Of a DNA stretch of 64,000 nt, positions 4,413-49,343 are shown one piece after another. Location of the stretch: sequence record OR352954; one strand, 5' to 3'. Each line of letters opens with the position of its first letter. Within the stretch, counting starts at the first letter, position 1. Position numbers and translations under genes: made by a program. This DNA is from Escherichia phage AV124. The notes beneath the pieces were generated by a model. That model had not been told where the DNA came from. It ran no database searches and saw nothing but the letters and a program-made list of their open reading frames with translations.

Positions 4413-4580
4413 ATGTTAGAGGCAATCAATTATTTCTTTTTAGTTCTGGCAGCAGTGGCCTGTGTTTCTTGTGCCTTCGGTGCTGTCTTTTCAAAAGATG
4501 AAACACACCGTACGGTGTACGTGCTTTGTGCAGTCATCAACGCCGCTTTTACGGTGCATCTCTGGAGTATCGCCCTATGA
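4413..4580 (+). CDS. small hydrophobic protein (55 aa)
   Basis: Short ORF below the track cutoff, translated by eye (MLEAINYFFLVLAAVACVSCAFGAVF...); predicted TM helix; stop overlaps next start. Confidence 0.4.
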   Translation: MLEAINYFFLVLAAVACVSCAFGAVFSKDETHRTVYVLCAVINAAFTVHLWSIAL

Positions 4581-4771
4581 AGCTTTCACATTTTATTTAT
4601 GCTGTGTTAGGCCTTATGGCCCTGACCATGCTGACAACGTTGGGGCTTTCATTTACAGCAGGTCATGAGCAACAAACAAAAGAAATTTTGGGCGCAGGTT
4701 TCGGTATGTTCATGCTTGAATTCTTCCTGCTTCTTTTGGGAGGCGTGATTGTGGATACTTCCGGCTGGTAA
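4577..4771 (+). CDS. small membrane protein (64 aa)
   Basis: Start at internal ATG (MKLSHFIYAVLGLMALTMLTTLG...) overlapping the upstream stop; two hydrophobic segments. Confidence 0.5.
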   Translation: MKLSHFIYAVLGLMALTMLTTLGLSFTAGHEQQTKEILGAGFGMFMLEFFLLLLGGVIVDTSGW

Positions 4772-4781
4772 GGAGAAATAA

Positions 4782-4988
4782 ATGCGTGGATTTATGCCTT
4801 TGGTGAAACCTTTAGTAATCGTTGGAATAATTGTGGTAGTGGCGCTTTTTATTGTTGACACAGCAGATACCGTCACTCATAATTGTAAGCCTAACGGTGA
4901 GCAACGCCTTGCAAACAGTGCGGATGGCATTGTCGTTGAGAACAAACTGATCTGCGACGGTGGTCGCGTGAAGTGGTCTCGCTACTAA
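4782..4988 (+). CDS. small membrane protein (68 aa)
   Basis: RBS AAGGAGA; N-terminal hydrophobic helix. Confidence 0.55.
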   Translation: MRGFMPLVKPLVIVGIIVVVALFIVDTADTVTHNCKPNGEQRLANSADGIVVENKLICDGGRVKWSRY

Positions 4989-8594: not shown

Positions 8595-8966
8595 ATGATT
8601 GGATTTTGGGAATGGTTGACCATGCACAACAACTGGGTTCCTGGCGTTATCATGTATGCAATGATGTTGCTATGGGCTTTGGTCATCGCTTTCCGTAGTA
8701 CGTGGAAAGGGTATGTTGTTGCAATCGTCTTGATGGCTGGTGTTGGTGGTACACTGTTTAACTTCCTCAGCACATACCTTGACGGTTATGGAATGTATCA
8801 GCGCCATTATACTACTTGCGCAAAGCCAGAGGCTGTGGTATCATTCTATGTGTTTGATGCAAAGAAAGAGCGCTGTTATAAACCTGTTGTTGGATTTGCA
8901 CCTGTTGATGATAATCAGGTAAAGACTCTGACACCGAAACAAATGGAGACTGGAGAATGGCTTTAA
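8595..8966 (+). CDS. membrane protein (123 aa)
   Basis: RBS GGAGGGGGG; two N-terminal hydrophobic helices. Confidence 0.55.
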   Translation: MIGFWEWLTMHNNWVPGVIMYAMMLLWALVIAFRSTWKGYVVAIVLMAGVGGTLFNFLSTYLDGYGMYQRHYTTCAKPEAVVSFYVFDAKKERCYKPVVGFAPVDDNQVKTLTPKQMETGEWL

Positions 8967-9948: not shown

Positions 9949-10170
9949 ATGAAAATTGGTTTCTTAGGTCTTTTGGCGTTGGTATTTATCACGCTTAAAC
10001 TGTGCGGCGTGATCGCCTGGTCTTGGTGGCTTGTTCTACTGCCGCTCTACTTCGGGTTGGCACTTGTTGTTAGTTTCGGGGTGGTTTTTGTTCTCGGAGC
10101 TTTCGGTGTATTCGCTGCTTCTGCGCTTATTGAAAAACTCAAATTCTGGAATAAAAAATCTGGAAAATAA
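9949..10170 (+). CDS. small membrane protein (73 aa)
   Basis: RBS AAGGAGA; almost entirely hydrophobic. Confidence 0.55.
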   Translation: MKIGFLGLLALVFITLKLCGVIAWSWWLVLLPLYFGLALVVSFGVVFVLGAFGVFAASALIEKLKFWNKKSGK

Positions 10171-10581: not shown

Positions 10582-11769
10582 ATGAGCGTAGTAAACGAAT
10601 ACAAAGACCCAATGTCCGGCAAAGTAAACCACTTCGCAAAAGGCAGCATCAAATTCATCAGCATCAAACCCGTGAAGAATGCTGATCAAGATGGTATTAA
10701 GCGTACCCACATCCCTGCACGTAACGGTCAACCTGCTAAGGTGATTGAAGCCACCCACACTATCAGCTTTTTAATGCAGGAAGTTGATGCGGATAATAAC
10801 GTGGTAGACCCACAGAGCCAAGGCGATTGGATTGGTATGGGTGAGAAGAAACTTCACGCCAGCCACACGGATAAGGTTCAGGTCAAGTTTGATTCCGGTT
10901 ATAAAGATATTCTAGCTGGCATGGTTGTATCTTTCCCGCTGAAAGTCTCTAAGAATGGGGATAAAACCTATATCAACGGCACTTTAAGCGGTAAGACATT
11001 CAACATTCTGGATGAAAGCAAAGCGGGCCAAGCTGCCCCTCGTCAACAGCAGTCTTCTGCCCAGGCAGCACAGTCGGGCGGTGGTGTTAAGATCTATGGT
11101 GAGATTACCGAAATCGTAGGTAATCTGGCGACTGTTAATGACGAGAAGAACGGCCCCGGCGGTGTAGTTCTTTCCGATGAACAACTGGCACAGGTATCTG
11201 TTGGTGGACGAATGACTGCCTTTGTGGATATGTCTAACGGTAACATCCTGAATGGATTCAAAGCTTACGGCCCCGCAGGTCAGAACAACGGCGGTTCTGG
11301 TGGTAAAAAGAGTGGTGGGTACGACCAATTTGGTGTTGAAACAGGGCACGCCATTAACGGTCTGAAAGAGTTGATGGGTGCTGGTTATAAAGTGAAGGAT
11401 GAGCTGGAGACAGCTAAAGCCATTCACCGTGCCACATTGGATATGAAAGCGTTCGTTGCGGAGCGTACTGGTAAGCCAGTCGATTCTAACCCGGTTGGTG
11501 CAAGTGCAGGCAACGCAATTCTGGTTGCATGTAGCCGTTTCAATGCTAAGTCAGATGTTTCTGAAGCAACGATTCTGAACGCAGCCAAAGATGTGTATAC
11601 AAAGCTCTCTGAGCCGCTTTATACGTTCATTAGTGAAAGTGCCAAGGGTGCCGATCAAACTCCGTCACAGCCCGTCCAGGAGCGTTTAACGACACCTCCT
11701 GCCCAAGAGGCGCCCGCTATGGATTTTGATGAGCCACCGATGGACTGGGACGAAGAAATACCGTTTTGA
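10582..11769 (+). CDS. putative single-stranded DNA-binding protein
   Basis: Start at ATG 10582 with RBS AAGGAGAGA; Gly-rich linker; C-terminal acidic tip MDWDEEIPF resembling the bacterial SSB DDDIPF tail; OB fold not verifiable by eye. Confidence 0.45.
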   Translation: MSVVNEYKDPMSGKVNHFAKGSIKFISIKPVKNADQDGIKRTHIPARNGQPAKVIEATHTISFLMQEVDADNNVVDPQSQGDWIGMGEKKLHASHTDKVQVKFDSGYKDILAGMVVSFPLKVSKNGDKTYINGTLSGKTFNILDESKAGQAAPRQQQSSAQAAQSGGGVKIYGEITEIVGNLATVNDEKNGPGGVVLSDEQLAQVSVGGRMTAFVDMSNGNILNGFKAYGPAGQNNGGSGGKKSGGYDQFGVETGHAINGLKELMGAGYKVKDELETAKAIHRATLDMKAFVAERTGKPVDSNPVGASAGNAILVACSRFNAKSDVSEATILNAAKDVYTKLSEPLYTFISESAKGADQTPSQPVQERLTTPPAQEAPAMDFDEPPMDWDEEIPF

Positions 11770-12197
11770 TAATGAAAAGATGTTCTAATTGTGGGGCTGA
11801 AAAGCCCCTTGAACAATTTCAGATCAGGAGGGCTTCTAAGGATGGATATACCGCATCGTGCAAGATTTGTCTTAAGGAACGCGACCGAATCAGGGACCAA
11901 GATCCTGAACGTAAAGCAATGAAAGAACGATACGTTAAAGGTATCGGAAGAGAAGCGGCAGCACGAGCAAAGCGGAAGTATATCGAGAAGAATCCGAAGA
12001 AGAGATCTGTGCATATAAAAACAGGTAATGCGATCCGTGACGGCAAGATATTTAAACAGCCTTGTGAAGTTTGCGGAAGTGAAAATGTACAAGCTCATCA
12101 TTGTGATTACGATAAACCTTTAGAGGTTATGTGGCTATGTCCTATTCATCATGAAGAGTGGCACAGGCAATACGGCGAGGCAAAGAACGCTATATAA
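11766..12197 (+). CDS. HNH endonuclease
   Basis: Zn-finger Cys pairs plus HNH core HHCDYDKPLEVMWLCPIHHEEWH. Confidence 0.7.
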   Translation: MIMKRCSNCGAEKPLEQFQIRRASKDGYTASCKICLKERDRIRDQDPERKAMKERYVKGIGREAAARAKRKYIEKNPKKRSVHIKTGNAIRDGKIFKQPCEVCGSENVQAHHCDYDKPLEVMWLCPIHHEEWHRQYGEAKNAI

Positions 12198-12202
12198 AAG
12201 AA

Positions 12203-12230
12203 AAGGCTCCCAAATGGGAGCCTTTTTTAT
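12203..12230. terminator. bidirectional rho-independent terminator at the convergence point
   Basis: Perfect hairpin GGCTCCCA-AAT-GGGAGCC flanked by A-run upstream and T-run downstream, between convergent genes. Confidence 0.6.
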
Positions 12231-13990
12231 TACGGTCTTTGATAGACAGCTACATCATAGACAGTCCCTCTTCCACAATAGGTTACTTGTAGAATTGTAA
12301 CTGAATTTGCAGTAGTGCTGATCGTACCACCATTTATGATTTTATAAGATGCATCAAGGGTGACGGCATGTCCGCCAGTTGCATCCTGGAACAGATAGAT
12401 CGTGGCAGTAAAAGCACTACCAAGATTTGCCCAAGGCCCGATAGTTAAAGTATTTGTCACATCTACGTTGTAGATGTTATTCATCTTCGTCAGATCAGAG
12501 CCTGTCCCTCCTGGTGTCCAAGTTGTTCCTGCGGAAGGTGTGGTAACAGAACCAGGGGTTGTTCCTACAAAATTCGCAGTGACCTTAGGAGCCGTTGCTT
12601 CACCCGTAATAACGAGGGATGCACCTTTTAGAGACCCGTATGCCTCTATTGTGGTGGTTGCCAGAACGGAGTTAGGGTTAATGTCCTTCCCGTTGACATC
12701 AACAGAAACGCCCGTTAGAGTACCAAGTACGTTAAGATTGTTTACAGTTGTTGTGCCTGTCCCACCATTATTAAGGTTGGCGTTTCCAGTAACTGTAAGG
12801 TTGGTGCTTACCGTAGCTGCCCCAGTAACTGCAAGCAGGCCCGTGATGGAGAGGTTTCCTGCAACAGAGCTAGCACTACCGGCTGTAAATCCCCCAGTTA
12901 ATGTGCTGTTTCCATCGACTGTTAATGAACTTACTACGCCTAAATTCTGAATAGAGGCACTTCCGAGAGTTGTTACACCGTTTACAGTTAGATCAGACCC
13001 TATCTCGGCTGTTGTCGTTGTGGCAATAGAGTTGGGGAGAATGTCTAAGCCATCAACACCGACATTGACACCGGACAACGAACCCGTTACTCTTACGTTT
13101 TCAAGTTCTGTCGTTCCGGTTACCTTAAGTCTTGGTTCCGTAGAGGCCTTGGAAGAGTTCCCTCGGATATACACATAGTCGAAGGTGTTATTACCGACAC
13201 CAGTTAATGACATTGTGGTGTTATCTGCACTAGCTGTCCCATTCACAATAACTGCGGAAGTCAGATTATTGGTTTGAACAGAGTTCGGAGATATGATAGT
13301 CTTCAGATAGTTAGAGGCAGCGGTGTAGTCAAAAGAAAGAGTGGCAGTTTGTCCAGATAACGAAATTTTCTGGAATTTACCAAGCACACCAGAGGCATCA
13401 AGCGTCCCACCAAATTGGGATGTCCCAGAAACAACCAATGTGTTAAGGGTTGAAGCACCAACCACCGTAAGAGCAGCATAACTTGGAGAAGACCCAGCAA
13501 GAGAATTGATCGCTGCTGCGACAGCCAAGTTGACAAATGCAGTTGTCGCTATTGCACCACTATTACTTCCCTGAGCAGGGGTAGGCGCTGTCGGAGAACC
13601 GACAAATGCAGGGGTATTAAGAGGTGCAAATTTTTCAGAAACTACAACGGAGTCATTATAAACTTTCCAAGCGGTGCTTGTGGACGGATCGGCAGGTAAA
13701 GTGATAGGTGTAGATGGTGACGCTCCTGGGGCATACCACCAGAAAGTCCCTGCTGAATTGGTGAAGGAATACAGTTGATTAAAAACTGTCGCCTGTGTAC
13801 CAGCCACCCAAGGTTGTGGTGGTGTTTTAAAATACACATTGTCAAGAAGCGCTTTACGTAATGTTGGAATCGTGCTACCATCTTCTACAATAACAGTGTC
13901 GATCGCCGATCCGTTGACCACCTTATGGAGACGCTCAGAATCCTCGATAACCTGATCCACAGCCTGTTCAAATTGTGTTGTATCAGCCAT
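12230..13990 (-). CDS. tail fibre protein (586 aa)
   Basis: Large Ser/Thr/Gly/Asn-rich repetitive beta-type sequence; RBS AAGGAGA; position at end of tail module. Confidence 0.6.
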   Translation of the reverse strand: MADTTQFEQAVDQVIEDSERLHKVVNGSAIDTVIVEDGSTIPTLRKALLDNVYFKTPPQPWVAGTQATVFNQLYSFTNSAGTFWWYAPGASPSTPITLPADPSTSTAWKVYNDSVVVSEKFAPLNTPAFVGSPTAPTPAQGSNSGAIATTAFVNLAVAAAINSLAGSSPSYAALTVVGASTLNTLVVSGTSQFGGTLDASGVLGKFQKISLSGQTATLSFDYTAASNYLKTIISPNSVQTNNLTSAVIVNGTASADNTTMSLTGVGNNTFDYVYIRGNSSKASTEPRLKVTGTTELENVRVTGSLSGVNVGVDGLDILPNSIATTTTAEIGSDLTVNGVTTLGSASIQNLGVVSSLTVDGNSTLTGGFTAGSASSVAGNLSITGLLAVTGAATVSTNLTVTGNANLNNGGTGTTTVNNLNVLGTLTGVSVDVNGKDINPNSVLATTTIEAYGSLKGASLVITGEATAPKVTANFVGTTPGSVTTPSAGTTWTPGGTGSDLTKMNNIYNVDVTNTLTIGPWANLGSAFTATIYLFQDATGGHAVTLDASYKIINGGTISTTANSVTILQVTYCGRGTVYDVAVYQRP

Positions 13991-14001: not shown

Positions 14002-14277
14002 TTATTTAATTTCTTGTTTATCTTCATCTTCCGCTGCCTTTATAGCTAAACCCCAGCGAAGTGAGATTAGCTTGCTTATAAGTTGTGGAGCTGCTACAGT
14101 AGGTGCATATACCCACATGTACCATTCTGTAAGGGTTCCTTTAAATCCCCAGTACAGGAAAACAGCCGTCATGGATGCCAGACCTATATTGCTCCAAAAC
14201 TTGGTATGTGAGGCCTTATCAGGGTCTATAGGGGACCTGACTAAGTCCTTTAGGAACTTCATTATTCGAGTTGGCAT
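14002..14277 (-). CDS. small membrane protein, holin-like candidate (91 aa)
   Basis: Start moved to ATG 14277 (MPTRIMKF...); central hydrophobic helix and charged C-terminus. Confidence 0.4.
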   Translation of the reverse strand: MPTRIMKFLKDLVRSPIDPDKASHTKFWSNIGLASMTAVFLYWGFKGTLTEWYMWVYAPTVAAPQLISKLISLRWGLAIKAAEDEDKQEIK

Positions 14278-14290
14278 TTTACCTCGGGGA

Positions 14291-14764
14291 TCAATGAGTG
14301 AAGAATGGTAATGCCCTGGCAATCACCAACAGGCTTATGACAGTTGCAGTTTTTATCCATTCCTTTATCGTCGTGTCTTTAAAATTTGCACAAAGTATGA
14401 TAATTTCCATCCAAGTTTGGTAGGAAGAATTTATTACAAAATCAAAGAGTCCGGGGATTATTAACGGAAACTGCATGGATATTATCTGGCAGAAGAGAAT
14501 TGGCACTGCTACAGAGAGTGTTAGCTTTTTCTTCCATCCCGATAATATACACGCAGCACCAAAGATAAAAGAGATATCTAGGAACCAACATAGATTAAGG
14601 TAAAGAGATAGATCGAAAAACTGGGTGTTTGAAGAAAACCACCATAGGAGGGTATTCTCAAGAAAGATATGGACCATGCCAAAAACAGACATGATCCTTA
14701 TACCTTTGTCAGAATGAAACAACAAAATAATAAAGCACAGAAAATAGAATACTGAGCTTATCAT
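14291..14764 (-). CDS. polytopic membrane protein (157 aa), AT-rich gene
   Basis: Strongly hydrophobic Phe/Ile/Leu-rich ORF; local base composition visibly AT-richer than flanking genes. Confidence 0.5.
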   Translation of the reverse strand: MISSVFYFLCFIILLFHSDKGIRIMSVFGMVHIFLENTLLWWFSSNTQFFDLSLYLNLCWFLDISFIFGAACILSGWKKKLTLSVAVPILFCQIISMQFPLIIPGLFDFVINSSYQTWMEIIILCANFKDTTIKEWIKTATVISLLVIARALPFFTH

Positions 14765-15075
14765 TTTGCGGATCTTTCCATTAACATCTGGAATTGCTTG
14801 GTGAGGTCTGTTCTTAAATCACCAACATCTCCCTTGATGTCCCTTCTAAGATCGGAAACATCATCCCTAATCGCTTTTAGCTTTTTATCTAAGATATCAT
14901 CCAGCTTTTCTTTAGTGACCATTTCGGCCCTTATACGGATGATATCTTTGTCAAGCTCATCAAGGCGCTCTTGAGTCTTTTTGTAATCCGAGTACGTTAT
15001 TCTTAGGACTCCGATCAGGACAAAGGTAATAACCCCCCAGACCGCCTTCAGGATAGCAAACAGGTCAATAGACAT
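14761..15075 (-). CDS. membrane-anchored coiled-coil protein (104 aa)
   Basis: N-terminal TM helix followed by charged heptad-like region; ATGA overlap with downstream gene. Confidence 0.5.
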   Translation of the reverse strand: MSIDLFAILKAVWGVITFVLIGVLRITYSDYKKTQERLDELDKDIIRIRAEMVTKEKLDDILDKKLKAIRDDVSDLRRDIKGDVGDLRTDLTKQFQMLMERSAK

Positions 15076-15084
15076 AGTGCCCCC

Positions 15085-15564
15085 TTAGGCTGTCTGCGGA
15101 AGCTCTGGTTGAGGGTCTCCCTTGGTCCATCCTCTGAGATCGATGATATATTTCTTCATTGTCTCAACCTTATCTTCTTCACCCAGTGCAGCGTAAGTTG
15201 ATAGCAGTATCGCGGCCCTTTGGAAAAGTCCTTGTTTCTTATTTTCAAAGATTCTGTCTTCCATCCACTCCACTTTTTCGAACTCTTCACCGTTAAAGAT
15301 ATGAGTTCTATTAGAGAAATCACTTGGGAGAGAATCTACAAGACGAAAGTAACAATCTTCCGGGAAGAATTTGGTCGGGTCCGTATCTGCCATATAGACC
15401 TGACCGTTAGAATCGTATTGAATATATAGGCCTTTTTGTTTTTCTTTTAATTGAGATACAAAATCGTACCAATCTTGACCGTTCTCATCTTTTAGATATA
15501 AGGCGCCAGGAACCGCAACCTTTTCTGGAGAATATCTAACCCATTTCATATCAGTTATTTTCAT
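15085..15564 (-). CDS. tail fibre assembly protein-like (159 aa)
   Basis: Start at ATG 15564 overlapping the upstream stop (TAATG); immediately downstream of a tail-fibre gene. Confidence 0.4.
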   Translation of the reverse strand: MKITDMKWVRYSPEKVAVPGALYLKDENGQDWYDFVSQLKEKQKGLYIQYDSNGQVYMADTDPTKFFPEDCYFRLVDSLPSDFSNRTHIFNGEEFEKVEWMEDRIFENKKQGLFQRAAILLSTYAALGEEDKVETMKKYIIDLRGWTKGDPQPELPQTA

Positions 15565-16610
15565 TAAAGCCCCACTGTATACCAAATGCCATCAAGAGCT
15601 TTCTGTAAAAATCTGAACCTTATCTCATCAATGTCGTGAAGATAAACATCTCCGCTGGCGTTCGCATCAATCAGGCCAGTCAATACAGAGCCGTCAGGTC
15701 CACGCGCGAAACGTCCACCTGGACCATAATTCTCAAAATCAACGTTGACTTTGTTTTGTTCTCCACTCCAACGAATGTCAGAAACCCCAATACTGATATG
15801 AAGATCACCATTGGCATTTGCAGCGGTACTATTTACTGCACGAACAATGGATCTTCCACCAACGGTTGCGTTGTTGGAGTTTACTACGAGGTTTTGTAAC
15901 GTAGCTGTACCACTAACACCAAGACTGGTTGTCTGAATATTACCACCATTATTAATGGTTGTCGATGCTAAGGTTCCTGTAGTCATCGTACCTGTGGCTG
16001 TAATATTACCCTGGACCCTTAACAGCGCAGTGTTTGTACCAGTTGCATTAAGCTCCATCATGTTGAATGGTGAAACTGTAGCAGAGTTGTTTACAGGAAC
16101 AAAGCGGAACCTCATGATATCAACATTAGATTGTCCAGCTACACCCGGATTATCACCAATTACAAAATCCAAATAGGTTTGGTCAGTACCTAAGGTGGTT
16201 GTGATGTGTGCAGTATCGCTTGCATCAGATGGGAAGGTAATACGCGGAACAGTCAAAGGACCTGTCATCGTGTCACCTTCAACATTCACATAACGATTAT
16301 CCCCTTCAGCTTTACTATAGACCTCTAGATTAGTACGAGCTGTGGCCTTATTCTCCACATCACTTAAGTTCTGGTCTTTTCTTAAATAATCGGCTGCCAT
16401 ACCAGGAATTTGCTCAGTGGAAATGTAAGACATCCACCAAGTCATCATGTTAAGAACATAGTTAAGTTCTTCACAAGCGGGTTTCTCACCCAAATCCCAA
16501 CCCTTATCCCAAAGATCAGCGATAGGGGAGATTTTATTTGCAGTATGAGCATTAGGTAACACGACGTCACTTTCAGCCCATATCTGAAGAGGAATAGTAG
16601 GAATTGCCAT
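15564..16610 (-). CDS. tail fibre protein (348 aa)
   Basis: Thr/Asn/Gly-rich beta-rich sequence; RBS GGGAGA. Confidence 0.5.
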   Translation of the reverse strand: MAIPTIPLQIWAESDVVLPNAHTANKISPIADLWDKGWDLGEKPACEELNYVLNMMTWWMSYISTEQIPGMAADYLRKDQNLSDVENKATARTNLEVYSKAEGDNRYVNVEGDTMTGPLTVPRITFPSDASDTAHITTTLGTDQTYLDFVIGDNPGVAGQSNVDIMRFRFVPVNNSATVSPFNMMELNATGTNTALLRVQGNITATGTMTTGTLASTTINNGGNIQTTSLGVSGTATLQNLVVNSNNATVGGRSIVRAVNSTAANANGDLHISIGVSDIRWSGEQNKVNVDFENYGPGGRFARGPDGSVLTGLIDANASGDVYLHDIDEIRFRFLQKALDGIWYTVGL

Positions 16611-16619
16611 GATTCTCCC

Positions 16620-17249
16620 TTATAATAGTGTGTTCTCTTCTTCGGAGGTATAGATAAGACTGGATAGGCCACCAGGCCCTGTTCGCGATGTGCTTACAGA
16701 CCCAAAACCAATTGCATAGGAATCGTTTTTAAACCCAAAAGGTAGCCCTTCTGATTTTACCAGTCGAAGGTACGTAGGCATAGGGAGCATATCTTTTATT
16801 TCTTGTATAGCTGTTTCTATCTCGAAACAGCTATTAAAGATATTGATATCAAAACGATAATTATCACCTTTGTAAGTGGTAAAATTCTCGGCTCCGAAGA
16901 GTTGCTTCAGCGTCCCAATTACCTCAGGCCTGGTCCCGTGTTTAGCTGTGCTTGAGAGCAGGATTGTGATAATGGCACGATAATTCATATCACTCAAGCC
17001 ATTTCTGTCAATTCCCACTTGAGCACCAATCTCATCCAAGTTGACTCCTCCGGCATTCTGGAGGAGACGCCCTTCTGCAAGATTGACCATCATCTCATCT
17101 ACAGCCTTCATTCGTTCCAGATACACGGATAAAAATTTTACAAGGTTTTCTTTTTCCCGTAAAAAGTCCCCCGGCAGGTAGTCAATACCGTCCGAAACGA
17201 AATCATCCAATGGATGGATGTGGTTGACATCTTTTATCGTATCTGCCAT
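16620..17249 (-). CDS. baseplate component (209 aa)
   Basis: Position between baseplate and fibre genes; RBS AGAGGGA. Confidence 0.4.
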   Translation of the reverse strand: MADTIKDVNHIHPLDDFVSDGIDYLPGDFLREKENLVKFLSVYLERMKAVDEMMVNLAEGRLLQNAGGVNLDEIGAQVGIDRNGLSDMNYRAIITILLSSTAKHGTRPEVIGTLKQLFGAENFTTYKGDNYRFDINIFNSCFEIETAIQEIKDMLPMPTYLRLVKSEGLPFGFKNDSYAIGFGSVSTSRTGPGGLSSLIYTSEEENTLL

Positions 17250-17257
17250 AATCCCTC

Positions 17258-18751
17258 TTAGATTATCTGTAGGAATGTAATATTATCAGTGTCGATAGAG
17301 AATACCTCATCCATCCCTGCAACAACATCAGAGGTTGTATAGGAAGTATCAGGATCTCCGACGTTCTTGACATCCACATAAAGTTGTGTAAATCTACCAG
17401 CAGAGATAGAAGAACCTACAGCAGATACAAGCTGGATGTTGTATAAAGTGTCAGCAATGTTAAGCGGGTCAATAACACCTTTGAGGGCGGACTTTATAGT
17501 ATCCTGTTCAGTGGTTGAGAGGACCTTTCCTTTATAACGGACACGGATAGCCAAATCCCGTGCCTGTGCTTTACTGTGATAAATTCGTTCTGTCTGATTA
17601 TCCTCAGTAGGGACATCATAAAAAACATTACCATAGGTAGCGTTAGACAAAGCAATTGAATTATAAAGTGCCTTGCTAATATCTTCAGTAGACCCACCAT
17701 ACACCACGGTCTCAAACTTGTACGGTGGTATTCCATTCTGGTCTGTAGTCCCTGTGTTATTTGAGAAGATTTTAACCTTACTTACACCACTCACCCCAAG
17801 GACAGCACTCACCACCGCAGGTCTGGTCGCAGCCGCACTCGATGCTGTTGTGTTAGAAGCCCTGACCTTGTATTCGGTGTCGGTCTCAACATCTGTACCC
17901 TCTGTGAAGGCATTCATGTTGTTAAGGCTGATGAACCCACCCGGTGTTGGGGAAATCGAGGTTACGGTGTTTTTCTCTCTCGACAGTTCACCTGCCTCAA
18001 CAGCAACAACATCCATTGTGATTGTACGTTCACCAACAATTGGTGATGTCCTGAAATCAACACGGCTATTAAGGCCGATCATTTCAAGATTAGTATCATA
18101 CCCAATGTACAATGCCCCGTTTTGAGAGTCAATGATGATCCTATCATTATTAAGCTCGGAGGTATTGTTGACAATAAAGCTCTTGACAGAGGCCATGAAA
18201 GTGTTAAGCTGAGAGCTATTAGGTGTTTTATTGGTCAACTGAAGAGTTGTTTGACTTGTGGTTCCGGTGTTTTGATTATTGATCTGGAAACTATAAGTAC
18301 CTACAACCCAGTCCTTATTGAGAATTTTTTGTGCCAGTATGTTACCTGCAAGGGTGGTGTCGTCATTTAATACAAATGTACCACTATCAAGTGTGTATGT
18401 GTTTTGGGCATATACCATGTTGTAAGGGACAGTATTATTAACTGTCATCTCAACAGATCCTGAACTTTTTGTCTTCCCTCGACGATAAACACCTCTTCGG
18501 GAAAGCAGCTCATCAAGATAAATCCCCTCAGCCCCTGCAAGGGTCTGAGCCGAATAAACTGACGCTGCCAGAAGGATAATCTGATATTCCCTTTCGTTGA
18601 AAATTGTTGTCAACTTGTCAGCAATTGTGTTAGTTTGCGTGTTGAAATTTTCACCAAAAGTTCTAATGAGGGTCTGTTTTGTGTCTGCGATAAGGTCATC
18701 AAGAGAGGGGATAGTGAAACCGTAATCGCTCAATCCATATTGAGTTGCCAA
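17258..18751 (-). CDS. baseplate protein (497 aa), TTG start
   Basis: Long ORF; TTG start preceded by strong RBS AAGGAGG at 5-nt spacing. Confidence 0.45.
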   Translation of the reverse strand: MATQYGLSDYGFTIPSLDDLIADTKQTLIRTFGENFNTQTNTIADKLTTIFNEREYQIILLAASVYSAQTLAGAEGIYLDELLSRRGVYRRGKTKSSGSVEMTVNNTVPYNMVYAQNTYTLDSGTFVLNDDTTLAGNILAQKILNKDWVVGTYSFQINNQNTGTTSQTTLQLTNKTPNSSQLNTFMASVKSFIVNNTSELNNDRIIIDSQNGALYIGYDTNLEMIGLNSRVDFRTSPIVGERTITMDVVAVEAGELSREKNTVTSISPTPGGFISLNNMNAFTEGTDVETDTEYKVRASNTTASSAAATRPAVVSAVLGVSGVSKVKIFSNNTGTTDQNGIPPYKFETVVYGGSTEDISKALYNSIALSNATYGNVFYDVPTEDNQTERIYHSKAQARDLAIRVRYKGKVLSTTEQDTIKSALKGVIDPLNIADTLYNIQLVSAVGSSISAGRFTQLYVDVKNVGDPDTSYTTSDVVAGMDEVFSIDTDNITFLQII

Positions 18752-18861
18752 TTCGTCCTCCTTTCAGGACCATGATTCTTTTGTATATTTTACCATACGC
18801 GGCAGTGTTTTGCAAATAAAGGGGAAGAAGCTACAAATGAAAAAACCACCCCGAAGGGTGG

Positions 18862-19695
18862 TTAGTTGCCGGACAAAGAGTCTTCCAAGGCTGAAAGGCG
18901 CTTGTCAAGATCCTCCTGCACCGCTATTGTTGCTCTAAGTATCCAGAATAAAAGCTCTTCTTTTCTGAAAGCGTACTCCTCGCCTGCTGGGTTATCACCA
19001 TTAGCTTCCCACTTATCATAGCAAAATGCTGAGTATTTCGTCCAATCAAGACCATACTTAAGCATAATCTTGATAGCATCTTGTACAGTAGGTCCCGAAT
19101 GGAGTCTAGCTAAACCTTTTTCAGAAGAGTATTTTGCCAACCATTGCCAGACAGAGTCTAGTTTTCCAATCTCATAGAACGCTTTTACTTCTGCGGTTGA
19201 AATTTGGCGAAGGTTGGTTTTCTTTTTCTTATTGGAAGTAGAAATCACACTATTCACAGCATAAACTTGATTCCAACGAAGAGCTGTAGTACCGTTTGAA
19301 ATAAAGTTATCCCGCTTAGGGTAAAATGCTGCTAATGATGTAGATATCTGGACACCATAAGATCTTTGCACTGGGCTTATAGATATTGTATCTGCATATG
19401 TCCCAACTTCGTTTCCAGAGGTGGCAAAATAATACCCATTAGATAGATTTTGCCACTTGTTTGAAAGACTGTCCAGAACTTGCTGGACAGTTGATCCTGA
19501 ATGTGTCCCGACCAAAGAGGCCCCTGAGACATCCATGATATCACCTTTCTTTAAGATTCCAATATCAGAAATGAACTTACTAATAGTGGTTTTTTCTGTA
19601 TCAACAGATGACTGGATGATTAGCTCATCAGTATCTGATACCAACACCTTATCAGAAAGATTTCTTATCTTAATGACTGGCAAATCAATTGACAT
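18862..19695 (-). CDS. tail fibre with C-terminal intramolecular-chaperone-like domain
   Basis: Start at ATG 19695 (MSIDLPVIKIRNLSD); C-terminal region resembles the self-cleaving chaperone domain of phage fibres. Confidence 0.45.
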   Translation of the reverse strand: MSIDLPVIKIRNLSDKVLVSDTDELIIQSSVDTEKTTISKFISDIGILKKGDIMDVSGASLVGTHSGSTVQQVLDSLSNKWQNLSNGYYFATSGNEVGTYADTISISPVQRSYGVQISTSLAAFYPKRDNFISNGTTALRWNQVYAVNSVISTSNKKKKTNLRQISTAEVKAFYEIGKLDSVWQWLAKYSSEKGLARLHSGPTVQDAIKIMLKYGLDWTKYSAFCYDKWEANGDNPAGEEYAFRKEELLFWILRATIAVQEDLDKRLSALEDSLSGN

Positions 19696-48651: not shown

Positions 48652-48942
48652 TCACTTTTGAGGTGTAAATATGTTACGAATGTATGCCTGAAGGATAAGC
48701 AACTTGCTACGTGTATCTGCTGCTTCAAGATTATTTTTCTTAACAATAGCACTGTTTTTAGCGTTATCAGCACCATAGGGAAGTGGTGTTGGGTCAGAAG
48801 GGGGAATCATCGCGTGAGCAGGCGGCTTAGAAAGCACCTCAGAGGGATTAAACTTCTCAACCACTGGAACTACCTTCTGTGGAGACTCGCATCCAACAAG
48901 CATGATTACAGAGAGGAATATGGCAAGCAAACTCTTTCTCAT
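48652..48942 (-). CDS. o-spanin (outer-membrane lipoprotein, Rz1-like)
   Basis: Signal peptide with lipobox LVGC; Pro-rich mature part; overlaps the i-spanin stop by 4 nt. Confidence 0.65.
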   Translation of the reverse strand: MRKSLLAIFLSVIMLVGCESPQKVVPVVEKFNPSEVLSKPPAHAMIPPSDPTPLPYGADNAKNSAIVKKNNLEAADTRSKLLILQAYIRNIFTPQK

Positions 48943-49343
48943 TTAACCCCCAAGCTTTCATTATAGATATCAACAAAGTCGTTATCCAGCCCAAACTTTT
49001 TACCCGCTTCAGATTTGTTATATGCCTGTTGTTTTTCATCGAGTCGGGATCTAAGTAAATCATTCTTAGCCTTCTCTTCTGCAAGCTGGCGACTCAGTTC
49101 ATCAGAGAAGTCTTGCTGCCCATTTTTGAAATCTTGATTTGCATATTTGTTGTTTCTCATTTGCAGAACCCATTTGTTATCCGTATCATTAACCCCACGG
49201 CTATAGGCCTGCTGTATTTGGTCATCATACCACCACTTAACTTCAAAAGCGCCCCACAGGAGCGCCAGAGAAAGGACAGCAATGATAACCAGTTTGGTGT
49301 GTCCCTTTATAAAGGTCCAAACCACACTGATAAAATTTATCAT
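48939..49343 (-). CDS. i-spanin (Rz-like)
   Basis: N-terminal TM helix followed by charged coiled-coil periplasmic domain; ATGA overlap with upstream gene. Confidence 0.6.
   Translation of the reverse strand: MINFISVVWTFIKGHTKLVIIAVLSLALLWGAFEVKWWYDDQIQQAYSRGVNDTDNKWVLQMRNNKYANQDFKNGQQDFSDELSRQLAEEKAKNDLLRSRLDEKQQAYNKSEAGKKFGLDNDFVDIYNESLGVK

Follow-up and report, generated by a model that had tools for sequence, protein, structure and literature searches.

Which protein opens the inner membrane at the end of infection in rV5-like myophages is the question raised by three small genes of Escherichia phage AV124. The stretch analysed here (the window) comprises 64,000 nucleotides (nt) of sequence record OR352954, and positions are window coordinates. 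Its minus strand carries gene A (104 amino acids (aa), 14761-15075), gene B (a 157-aa polytopic membrane protein, 14291-14764) and gene C (91 aa, 14002-14277). The sequence-only reading of this DNA had described three consecutive small membrane-protein genes between tail-fibre genes, and all three open reading frames (ORFs) are indeed present at these positions. Across the surrounding 5.3 kb, identity reaches 99.2% with Klebsiella phage vB_KpnM_NDO71 and about 94-96% with phages KB57, Mydo, KpS8, and KNP2, all five being rV5-like myophages of the genus Mydovirus, subfamily Vequintavirinae; the window phage is accordingly taken as a Klebsiella Mydovirus. We propose, with a probability of about 0.55 and from gene context and architecture, that C may be the holin, A its partner, and B an accessory protein of a dispersed lysis system. 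Taken alone, C is rather probably a lysis protein or holin; A as the partner of C is a tentative assignment, held with somewhat less than even confidence.

The holin role of C is suggested first by its homologues. By tblastn and PHROG searches, members of phrog_1322, the family matched by C, were located between a soluble endolysin gene and an Rz-like spanin gene in 13 Mu-like loci, namely Pseudomonas phage Bise, Ralstonia phage RS138, and 11 prophages of Burkholderiales and Neisseriales. The prophage loci were collected by scanning a single genome of each bacterial species for this pattern, and belong to Burkholderiaceae, Cupriavidus, Pandoraea, Jeongeupia, and Neisseriaceae. The gene order in Bise is Mor, endolysin (Peptidase_M15_4), the C-like gene (E=1.2e-19), an Rz-like gene with embedded Rz1, a gene for a protein with a transmembrane domain (TMD) plus coiled coil, a gp26-like gene, and TerS, and that in RS138 is GemA, late activator, endolysin, C-like gene, and Rz-like spanin. 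In each locus, the C-like start coincides with the end of a gene whose product bears the sequence hallmarks of a soluble peptidoglycan hydrolase. Four unrelated endolysin types were confirmed on representatives with hidden Markov models (HMMs): M15 peptidase, Amidase_2/phrog_822, phrog_873, and phrog_90, the last of which resembles by eye the lambda R transglycosylase. The gene after the C-like gene is Rz spanin-like with an embedded lipoprotein gene, and matches phrog_1403 in 4 of the 4 representatives scanned. Judged by gene order, a C-like gene and an Rz that stay the same while the endolysin changes among four types form the mosaic pattern expected of a lysis cassette. Spanins apart, the C-like protein is the only multi-helix membrane protein of the Mu-like cassettes, as read off the ORF lists rather than surveyed systematically, and two of the prophage proteins are already labelled 'Holin' by their sources. 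A holin role of C is thus favoured because its homologues fill the holin slot between endolysin and Rz in compact lysis cassettes.

The architecture of C supports the same assignment, since the protein family combines a length of 80-91 aa with a positive N-terminus, two helices, and a charged C-tail. In C, a cationic N-terminal amphipathic helix is followed by two weakly hydrophobic helices rich in Gly, Ala, Ser, Thr, Trp, and Tyr and by the tail AAEDEDKQEIK, with a predicted N-in/C-in topology. It thereby has the outline of a small inner-membrane protein with TMD and charged tail, at a hydrophobicity below the usual TMD thresholds. An exhaustive profile search extended the family to 91 clusters at 50% identity, mostly of 70-100 aa. 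S23, K26, W28, and F40 of C are invariant in the family alignment. These features are shared with class II holins such as S21 of phage 21, which likewise have two helices, N-in/C-in topology, a cationic N-terminus, a charged C-tail, and, if the predicted late expression of C holds, a place in a late operon, and which stand immediately beside endolysin and Rz/Rz1 as the C homologues do. C differs from them in lacking similarity to any named holin family, in its unusually weakly hydrophobic helices, and in its distance of tens of kilobases from the endolysin. It also differs in the dual-start motif, which was considered and rejected, the second Met not being conserved in our alignment of the family. 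C and two homologues (P0038 and P0058) gave no match to Pfam DUF2644 (gathering score 22 bits), and the homologue phi1_175008 reached 13.8 bits (E=0.075), below the gathering score. The comparison of C with P2 Y by hhalign gave 0.3%, and the source names of ten distant representatives of the C family were all empty or 'hypothetical'.

Members of the C family in the T4-like phages Moby and ACP17 carry an extra N-terminal TMD (three TMDs), a variant that we also count among the holin-like features of the family, and lie on the opposite strand, among replication genes. In Stenotrophomonas phage Moby (MN095772; locus L012, 3851-4234, plus strand), the member is an unannotated 127-aa, three-TMD phrog_1322 protein followed by an annotated terminator, and the record carries the overlapping opposite-strand ORF CPT_Moby_033 instead; in Acidovorax phage ACP17 the homologous ORF bears a 'hypothetical' label. 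The T4 late-promoter motif TATAAATA was not found near either ORF, a search that is uninformative for GC-rich phages.

A holin is needed in this group because the endolysin is soluble, and the literature identifies none. The KB57 endolysin, KB57_141, is a 184-aa GH19/chitinase-like protein (phrog_181, E=6e-71) encoded among nucleotide-metabolism genes at about 95.6 kb. It contains no N-terminal hydrophobic, transmembrane, or signal-anchor-release (SAR) segment, so that its release should depend on a holin that forms holes. None of the neighbouring genes encodes a membrane protein, the small upstream ones having soluble products. In the window, a pair of minus-strand spanin genes encodes an o-spanin with lipobox LVGC (48652-48942) and an i-spanin with TMD plus coiled coil (48939-49343), and the pair matches KB57_077/078, annotated as 'Rz-like spanin', in size and in its position next to TerL. 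No endolysin is encoded in the 64-kb window, and neither an endolysin nor a holin lies beside the spanins at 48652-49343, in agreement with the sequence-only reading. Published genome descriptions of rV5-like and phi92-like myophages (Vequintavirinae and Stephanstirmvirinae) treat the holin as not identifiable: it could not be found in the Mydovirus KPP-1, gp129 was proposed for rV5 from transmembrane prediction alone, and CB7_82 was proposed for CB7. The rV5 paper also points to the separation of the T4 holin from the lysin gene. We rejected rV5 gp129 as the common holin, as it is confined to the Escherichia clade (116 records, none from Klebsiella, Salmonella, or Cronobacter phages).

We infer every functional step of the following lysis model from gene context and protein architecture. 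A, B, and C would be non-structural inner-membrane proteins, transcribed late together with the baseplate and tail-fibre genes. C would accumulate in the inner membrane late in infection and, on triggering, permeabilise it. The soluble GH19 endolysin, encoded elsewhere, would reach the murein through the C lesion, and the Rz/Rz1-type spanins next to TerL would then break the outer membrane. A would be a membrane-tethered cytoplasmic coiled-coil partner in N-out/C-in orientation, serving as co-holin or timing factor with C. B would be an accessory, genus-variable polytopic protein, for which lysis-timing modulator is our best guess. A displaced holin/antiholin set had been among the suggestions of the sequence-only reading; this idea is favoured for C through the holin slot of its homologues and for A by analogy. 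In T4, the holin gene t lies downstream of tail-fibre genes 37-38, directly after gene 38, and far from the endolysin gene e, the same arrangement of a holin gene in a fibre operon as proposed here, although T4 T has a large periplasmic domain and no homology to C. The P2 record likewise places Y-K-lysA-lysB-lysC between tail genes in a late operon, as A-B-C are placed in a structural operon.

At the N-terminus of the gene A product stands a single TMD of strong hydrophobicity (residues 5-21 or 5-24), in line with the '1 TMD' given for rV5 gp31 in the rV5 table; it is followed by an 80-residue helical tail containing 20 K/R and 19 D/E. The predicted N-out/C-in topology follows from the charge distribution, as D4 and no K/R precede the TMD and R25, K32, and K33 follow it. 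LysF1b of F1 mycobacteriophages is defined by a length of 92-150 aa, a single N-terminal TMD, N-out/C-in topology, basic residues after the TMD, and a C-terminal domain with 30-50% charged residues (PMC13056207), and A agrees with this architectural definition (104 aa, TMD 5-24, tail with 48.75% DEKRH). The LysF1b partner, LysF1a, is an 88-aa two-TMD protein of N-in/C-in topology (PMC13056207), so that A and C resemble the pair, C taking the place of the two-TMD protein of roughly 88-91 aa and A that of LysF1b. The two systems differ in that the host here is Gram-negative, homology is not detectable, there is no lysis cassette, and A and C are split by a fibre gene in rV5. In addition, A shares with the Mu releasin gp25 (DUF2730) a length of about 100 aa, one N-terminal TMD, a helical cytoplasmic domain, and the N-out/C-in topology (PMC9239132), and in at least seven of the Mu-like loci with a C homologue, the Mu gp25 'releasin' position is filled by proteins built like A. 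Mu gp25, however, frees a SAR endolysin, and because the enzyme of the present group is soluble, the mechanism does not apply as described; nor is A linked to the endolysin gene in this phage. The hhalign probability between the A family and Mu gp25 is 10%, and a mycobacteriophage holin sequence used as query retrieved only cluster A holins and not LysF1b. We suggest that A may work like the LysF1b and Mu releasin proteins without being a member of their families. A broader idea, which we regard as possible yet doubtful, is that PHROG 1322 represents a new holin family of phages of Gram-negative bacteria with a membrane-tethered cytoplasmic coiled-coil partner, either A or the releasin-position proteins of Mu-like cassettes, a two-component system parallel to LysF1a/LysF1b whose pair left any lysis cassette and moved into the tail-fibre operon. 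If true, lysis timing would be tied to fibre production in rV5-like, phi92-like, and Plateaulake-like myophages.

The mycobacteriophage comparison also allows the lysis roles to be swapped or partial. In F1 mycobacteriophages, holin activity resides with the one-TMD N-out/C-in protein, and the 88-aa two-TMD protein depends on it (PMC13056207). By this model, A would form the hole with C as helper or antiholin, or C would be pinholin-like, merely depolarising the membrane, with another small membrane protein encoded elsewhere as the true large-hole holin. The weakly hydrophobic helices of C recall SAR or pinholin TMDs, and the window encodes other small two-TMD proteins (for example, at 4413-4771, 8595-8966, and 9949-10170). 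However, every endolysin paired with the C family is soluble and needs a large-hole holin, and the C-family protein is, spanins apart, the only multi-TMD protein between late activator and TerS in the ORF lists. The other small membrane ORFs of the window all fall into PHROGs without known function. Among them are plus-strand ORFs of 55, 81, 68, and 123 aa at 4413-4988 and 8595-8966 (PHROGs 29375, 18454, 9531, and 7941). The most holin-like of the others is a 73-aa phrog_1374 protein (9949-10170, plus strand) with two to three very hydrophobic TMDs and a basic C-terminus; its relatives are found in many unrelated phages of Gram-negative and Gram-positive hosts, and one record names it 'transmembrane fragile-X-F protein'. 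We rejected it as the holin, given that the family is widespread, is called a holin in no record, and maps to the first genome half in 44-kb Klebsiella podophages. We therefore consider swapped or partial roles unlikely and retain C as the preferred holin candidate.

The three genes are tightly embedded in the tail-fibre locus. Directly upstream of A lies the gene of the tail-fibre assembly chaperone Tfa (15085-15585, minus strand; phrog_136, E=8.9e-29), so named in relatives, which is preceded by a 348-aa short tail-fibre gene (15564-16610, minus strand; phrog_4465, E=3e-138), a baseplate protein gene (16620-17249), and the baseplate J gene (17258-18751). Directly downstream of C lies a 586-aa tail-fibre gene (12230-13990, minus strand; phrog_4549, E=6e-209). 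The gap between the Tfa stop and A is 9 nt, and A is preceded by the Shine-Dalgarno sequence AAGGGGG. In ATGA, the start of B overlaps the stop codon of A, and 13 nt separate B from C. An alternative TTG start 15 codons upstream would extend C to 106 aa; the 91-aa start is preferred because a GAGGT Shine-Dalgarno sequence stands 4 nt before its ATG. The fibre ATG follows C after 11 nt, its Shine-Dalgarno sequence TAAGGAG overlapping the C stop. A strong intrinsic terminator on the minus strand (12201-12226; 11-bp stem with six GC pairs, T-run) marks the 3' end of the operon, at the place equivalent to a bidirectional terminator annotated in the Mydo record, and a further minus-strand terminator upstream of baseplate J (18844-18863; 8-bp stem with five GC pairs, T-run) forms its 5' boundary. 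The two terminators thus bracket a single operon from baseplate J to the 586-aa fibre, and the tight packing of A, B, and C within this structural operon suggests their co-expression late in infection.

Full-length significant HMM matches place C, B, and A in PHROGs 1322 (E=5.8e-32), 7451 (E=5.4e-79), and 5345 (E=2.5e-49), which are families without known function. Searches with tblastn detected C in 375, A in 222, and B in 106 phage records. The three genes are syntenic in Mydovirus, Seunavirus, and Certrevirus; Vequintavirus and Plateaulakevirus have A and C as well, and phi92-like phages have C. The order of the window is reproduced in PVP-SE1 (gp46 fibre, gp45 Tfa, gp44 A, gp43 B, gp42 C, gp41 fibre) and in CB7 (CB7_32 to CB7_36). 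In rV5, fibre gp33, Tfa gp32, and A (gp31) are followed by gp30, a second short fibre that stands in place of B, and then by C (gp29) and fibre gp28. In phi92, C (gp144) comes after the endosialidase tailspike, and gp149, a protein of A-like architecture, after Tfa. A and C occur together in Aeromonas Plateaulakevirus, where phage phiA009 has the order baseplate, fibre, Tfa-like, A (phrog_5345, E=1.3e-10), C, homing endonuclease, and fibre. B was not found in rV5, phi92, or phiA009. From this distribution A and C appear to be old, conserved residents of the locus and B a lineage-variable extra.

B contains four to five hydrophobic segments by hydropathy, and its AlphaFold2 (AF2) model is a bundle of six to seven helices with a mean predicted local distance difference test (pLDDT) score of 85 and a predicted template modelling (pTM) score of 0.78. 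The precomputed Pfam family PF26221 is assigned to B and to every B homologue. The 24 N-terminal residues of B are conserved in 29 homologues, which supports the 157-aa reading. In relatives the gene is mis-annotated, in NDO71 as a 372-nt ORF plus an 87-nt ORF on the opposite strand and in Mydo with a start at Met25 (corresponding coordinates: window 14291-14764; L003 3292-3757; L001 5096-5497). B resembles P2 LysA, a non-essential polytopic timing protein of about 140 aa, in form, both being polytopic, about 140-157 aa long, and dispensable in some lineages; beyond this general likeness no sequence similarity to LysA was found (hhalign 0.9%). Comparison with Mu gp19 gave 0.2%. An accessory role in lysis timing fits B because it lies between A and C and is dispensable in rV5, phi92, and phiA009, and an exclusion function is just as admissible.

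Exclusion could in principle extend to the whole cassette, and the sequence-only reading had named superinfection exclusion or receptor modification as a candidate function. Such a module beside the receptor-binding fibres, modelled on T5 Llp, T4 Imm/Sp, or the epsilon15 conversion genes, would block or modify the receptor or the DNA entry of related phages, protecting the infected cell and sparing progeny from debris. The position of the genes inside the receptor-binding locus, the genus-variability of B with its exchange for a second short-fibre gene in rV5, and the filing of phrog_1322 under 'moron/host takeover' by PHROG, a label without experimental basis, would be consistent with it. Scans of A, B, and C against Pfam, NCBIfam, and PADLOC, however, returned only sub-threshold coiled-coil noise, with no Gtr, acyltransferase, modification-family, or defence-model match. 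C was rejected as a relative of T4 Imm, with an hhalign probability of 1.9% and a different synteny: relative to gene 43, T4 imm is on the opposite side from the Moby and ACP17 ORFs and, unlike them, shares the strand of that gene. Moreover, the Mu-like homologues of C reside in lysis cassettes far from fibre genes, the operon that holds the genes is structural and probably late, in contrast to the usual early expression of exclusion genes, and the high conservation of A and C is not matched by the variable fibres. We thus judge exclusion an unlikely function of the cassette, although it is allowed for B, and continue to favour lysis.

Several observations weigh against the lysis assignment. 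The 13 Mu-like loci are mutually related and amount to fewer than 13 independent observations, the endolysin types giving at least four. The AF2 helices of C (residues 2-13, 24-45, and 51-90) are of low confidence (pLDDT 62), and a Kyte-Doolittle scan found no 17-residue window reaching a mean of 1.5, so that hydrophobicity stays below the usual TMD thresholds. Annotators called one TMD in PVP-SE1 gp42 and none in rV5 gp29, and the weak helix hydropathy accounts for these few calls. C also does not adjoin the endolysin gene in this phage (endolysin at about 95.6 kb in the related KB57 genome, spanins at 48.6 kb in the window). For B, the fold search gave no match in PDB (best E 0.74), and in BFVD matched only uncharacterised phage proteins of similar size. 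A showed no match to PF10874 (DUF2746) at E<=1 and its homologues none at E<=10; the name 'DUF2746 domain-containing' given by NCBI to the homologue P0083 was not reproduced. Neither did A match DUF2730 (gathering score 24.9 bits) at E<=1, and P0083 reached 13 bits (E=0.12), below the gathering score. The A family aligned with the set of proteins at the releasin position plus phi92 gp149 at an hhalign probability of 43% (E=2.5e-4), which may reflect coiled-coil composition. Finally, A always follows the Tfa gene, which may indicate a fibre-related role, and a few records call C homologues 'structural protein' with no evidence stated.

The last two points would suit a morphogenetic role, in which the proteins act as membrane-anchored factors for the assembly or attachment of fibres or baseplate, or are minor virion components. 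A stands directly after Tfa in Mydovirus, Seunavirus, Certrevirus, Vequintavirus, and Plateaulakevirus, as does gp149 in phi92, C always adjoins a fibre, tailspike, or baseplate gene in these myophages, and A has a weak match to phrog_404 'minor tail protein' (E=0.0018). Virion proteomics, within the limited sensitivity of such screens, speaks against it. Mass spectrometry (MS) of rV5 virions detected 19 proteins, including gp30, gp32, and gp33, and no peptides of gp29 (C) or gp31 (A). In the CB7 record, CB7_30, 31, and 36 are marked as confirmed by tandem MS (MS/MS), and the A-B-C homologues CB7_33-35 carry no such mark. A, B, and C thus appear not to be virion components, and homologues with a virion structural role, named in the sequence-only reading, together with uniform composition, as what would overturn its proposal, did not emerge for A and C in either proteome. 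In addition, the Mu-like C-family genes are unlinked to tail genes and lie between endolysin and spanin, the Moby and ACP17 members lie among replication genes, and the 'structural' labels carry no evidence. A morphogenetic function therefore seems quite improbable, and the lysis assignment is preferred.

The sequence-only reading had also remarked that the middle gene is visibly AT-richer than its neighbours and had taken this as a sign of horizontal acquisition. The observation is correct: the GC content of B is 0.365 against a window mean of 0.449, placing it in the lowest 1% of 474-nt windows. The conclusion drawn from it is not supported by our analysis. The deficit resides in codon positions 1 and 2 (0.342 and 0.335), while the GC content at position 3 (GC3), at 0.418, is normal for this phage (0.425 +/- 0.065 in long ORFs). 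The value expected from the amino acids of B and the codon usage of the phage is 0.387, and the observed-minus-expected difference of -0.022 equals one standard deviation of 29 reference genes; the neighbouring Tfa (-0.027) and fibre (-0.035) genes have larger residuals. B is AT-rich because 57% of its residues are hydrophobic or Cys (F, I, L, M, V, W, Y, C), with GC3 normal. That the cassette is a recently acquired foreign 'moron' would rest on this GC minimum, the lowest in the neighbourhood. Against it stand the synteny (protein identity 26-100%), which spans three or more genera in the case of B and a larger number in that of A and C, and the translational coupling of the genes, around which no flanking repeats or promoters were found. 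With the normal GC3, the small residual, and the synteny, the argument for horizontal acquisition falls; composition and synteny both told against it, we rejected it, and we consider a recent foreign origin highly improbable.

The assignment matters since rV5-like and phi92-like myophages are among the most often isolated coliphages and Klebsiella phages and have been widely proposed for therapy and biocontrol. A candidate conserved across the group would make lysis timing testable and open to engineering, and would offer a function for a 'hypothetical membrane protein' of several hundred phage genomes. If A is involved too, large virulent enterobacterial phages would join mycobacteriophages and Mu as carriers of the newly described class of one-TMD N-out/C-in lysis proteins.

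Additional observations concern the annotation of related sequences. The Mu-like prophage lysis regions encode a phrog_1103 protein of about 75-87 aa (L016 5007-5270, with equivalents in L017-L019, L021, L022, and L025), whose N-terminal coiled coil and C-terminal TMD are the reverse of the A arrangement. Proteins of the phrog_462/phrog_15210 type occupy the Mu releasin gp25 position in Mu-like phages. The PHROG label 'lipoprotein' of these two families looks wrong for L008 4701-4979 and for phi92 gp149 (L006 10523-10864), because both lack a lipobox cysteine and have an N-terminal TMD plus coiled coil; phi92 gp149 was rejected as a lipoprotein or o-spanin on the same features. About 20 records with MG0656xx accessions, labelled as Campylobacter phages, have genomes of 135-143 kb with rV5-type genes and 88-100% protein identity to rV5 gp129, and are probably mislabelled rV5-like coliphages. 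In OY978784.1, OY979426.1, and OY757067.1, feature names and sequence do not line up, with 'ribonucleoside diphosphate reductase small subunit', for example, standing over the 91-aa membrane-protein gene, which suggests shifted annotation tables.

Two further differences from close relatives lie within the window. An endonuclease VII/HNH-like gene (phrog_2340; 11766-12197, plus strand) adjoins the bidirectional terminator and is polymorphic: most close relatives (KB57, Mydo, and KpS8) match it only from nt 175-197 on, and the KNP2 version measures 279 nt. This polymorphism suggests a mobile insertion of homing-endonuclease type. The offset to KB57 coordinates is 13,346 at the fibre locus and 9,778 at the spanins (window about 12.2-48.6 kb), and therefore about 3.5 kb of the KB57 structural region is missing from the window phage.

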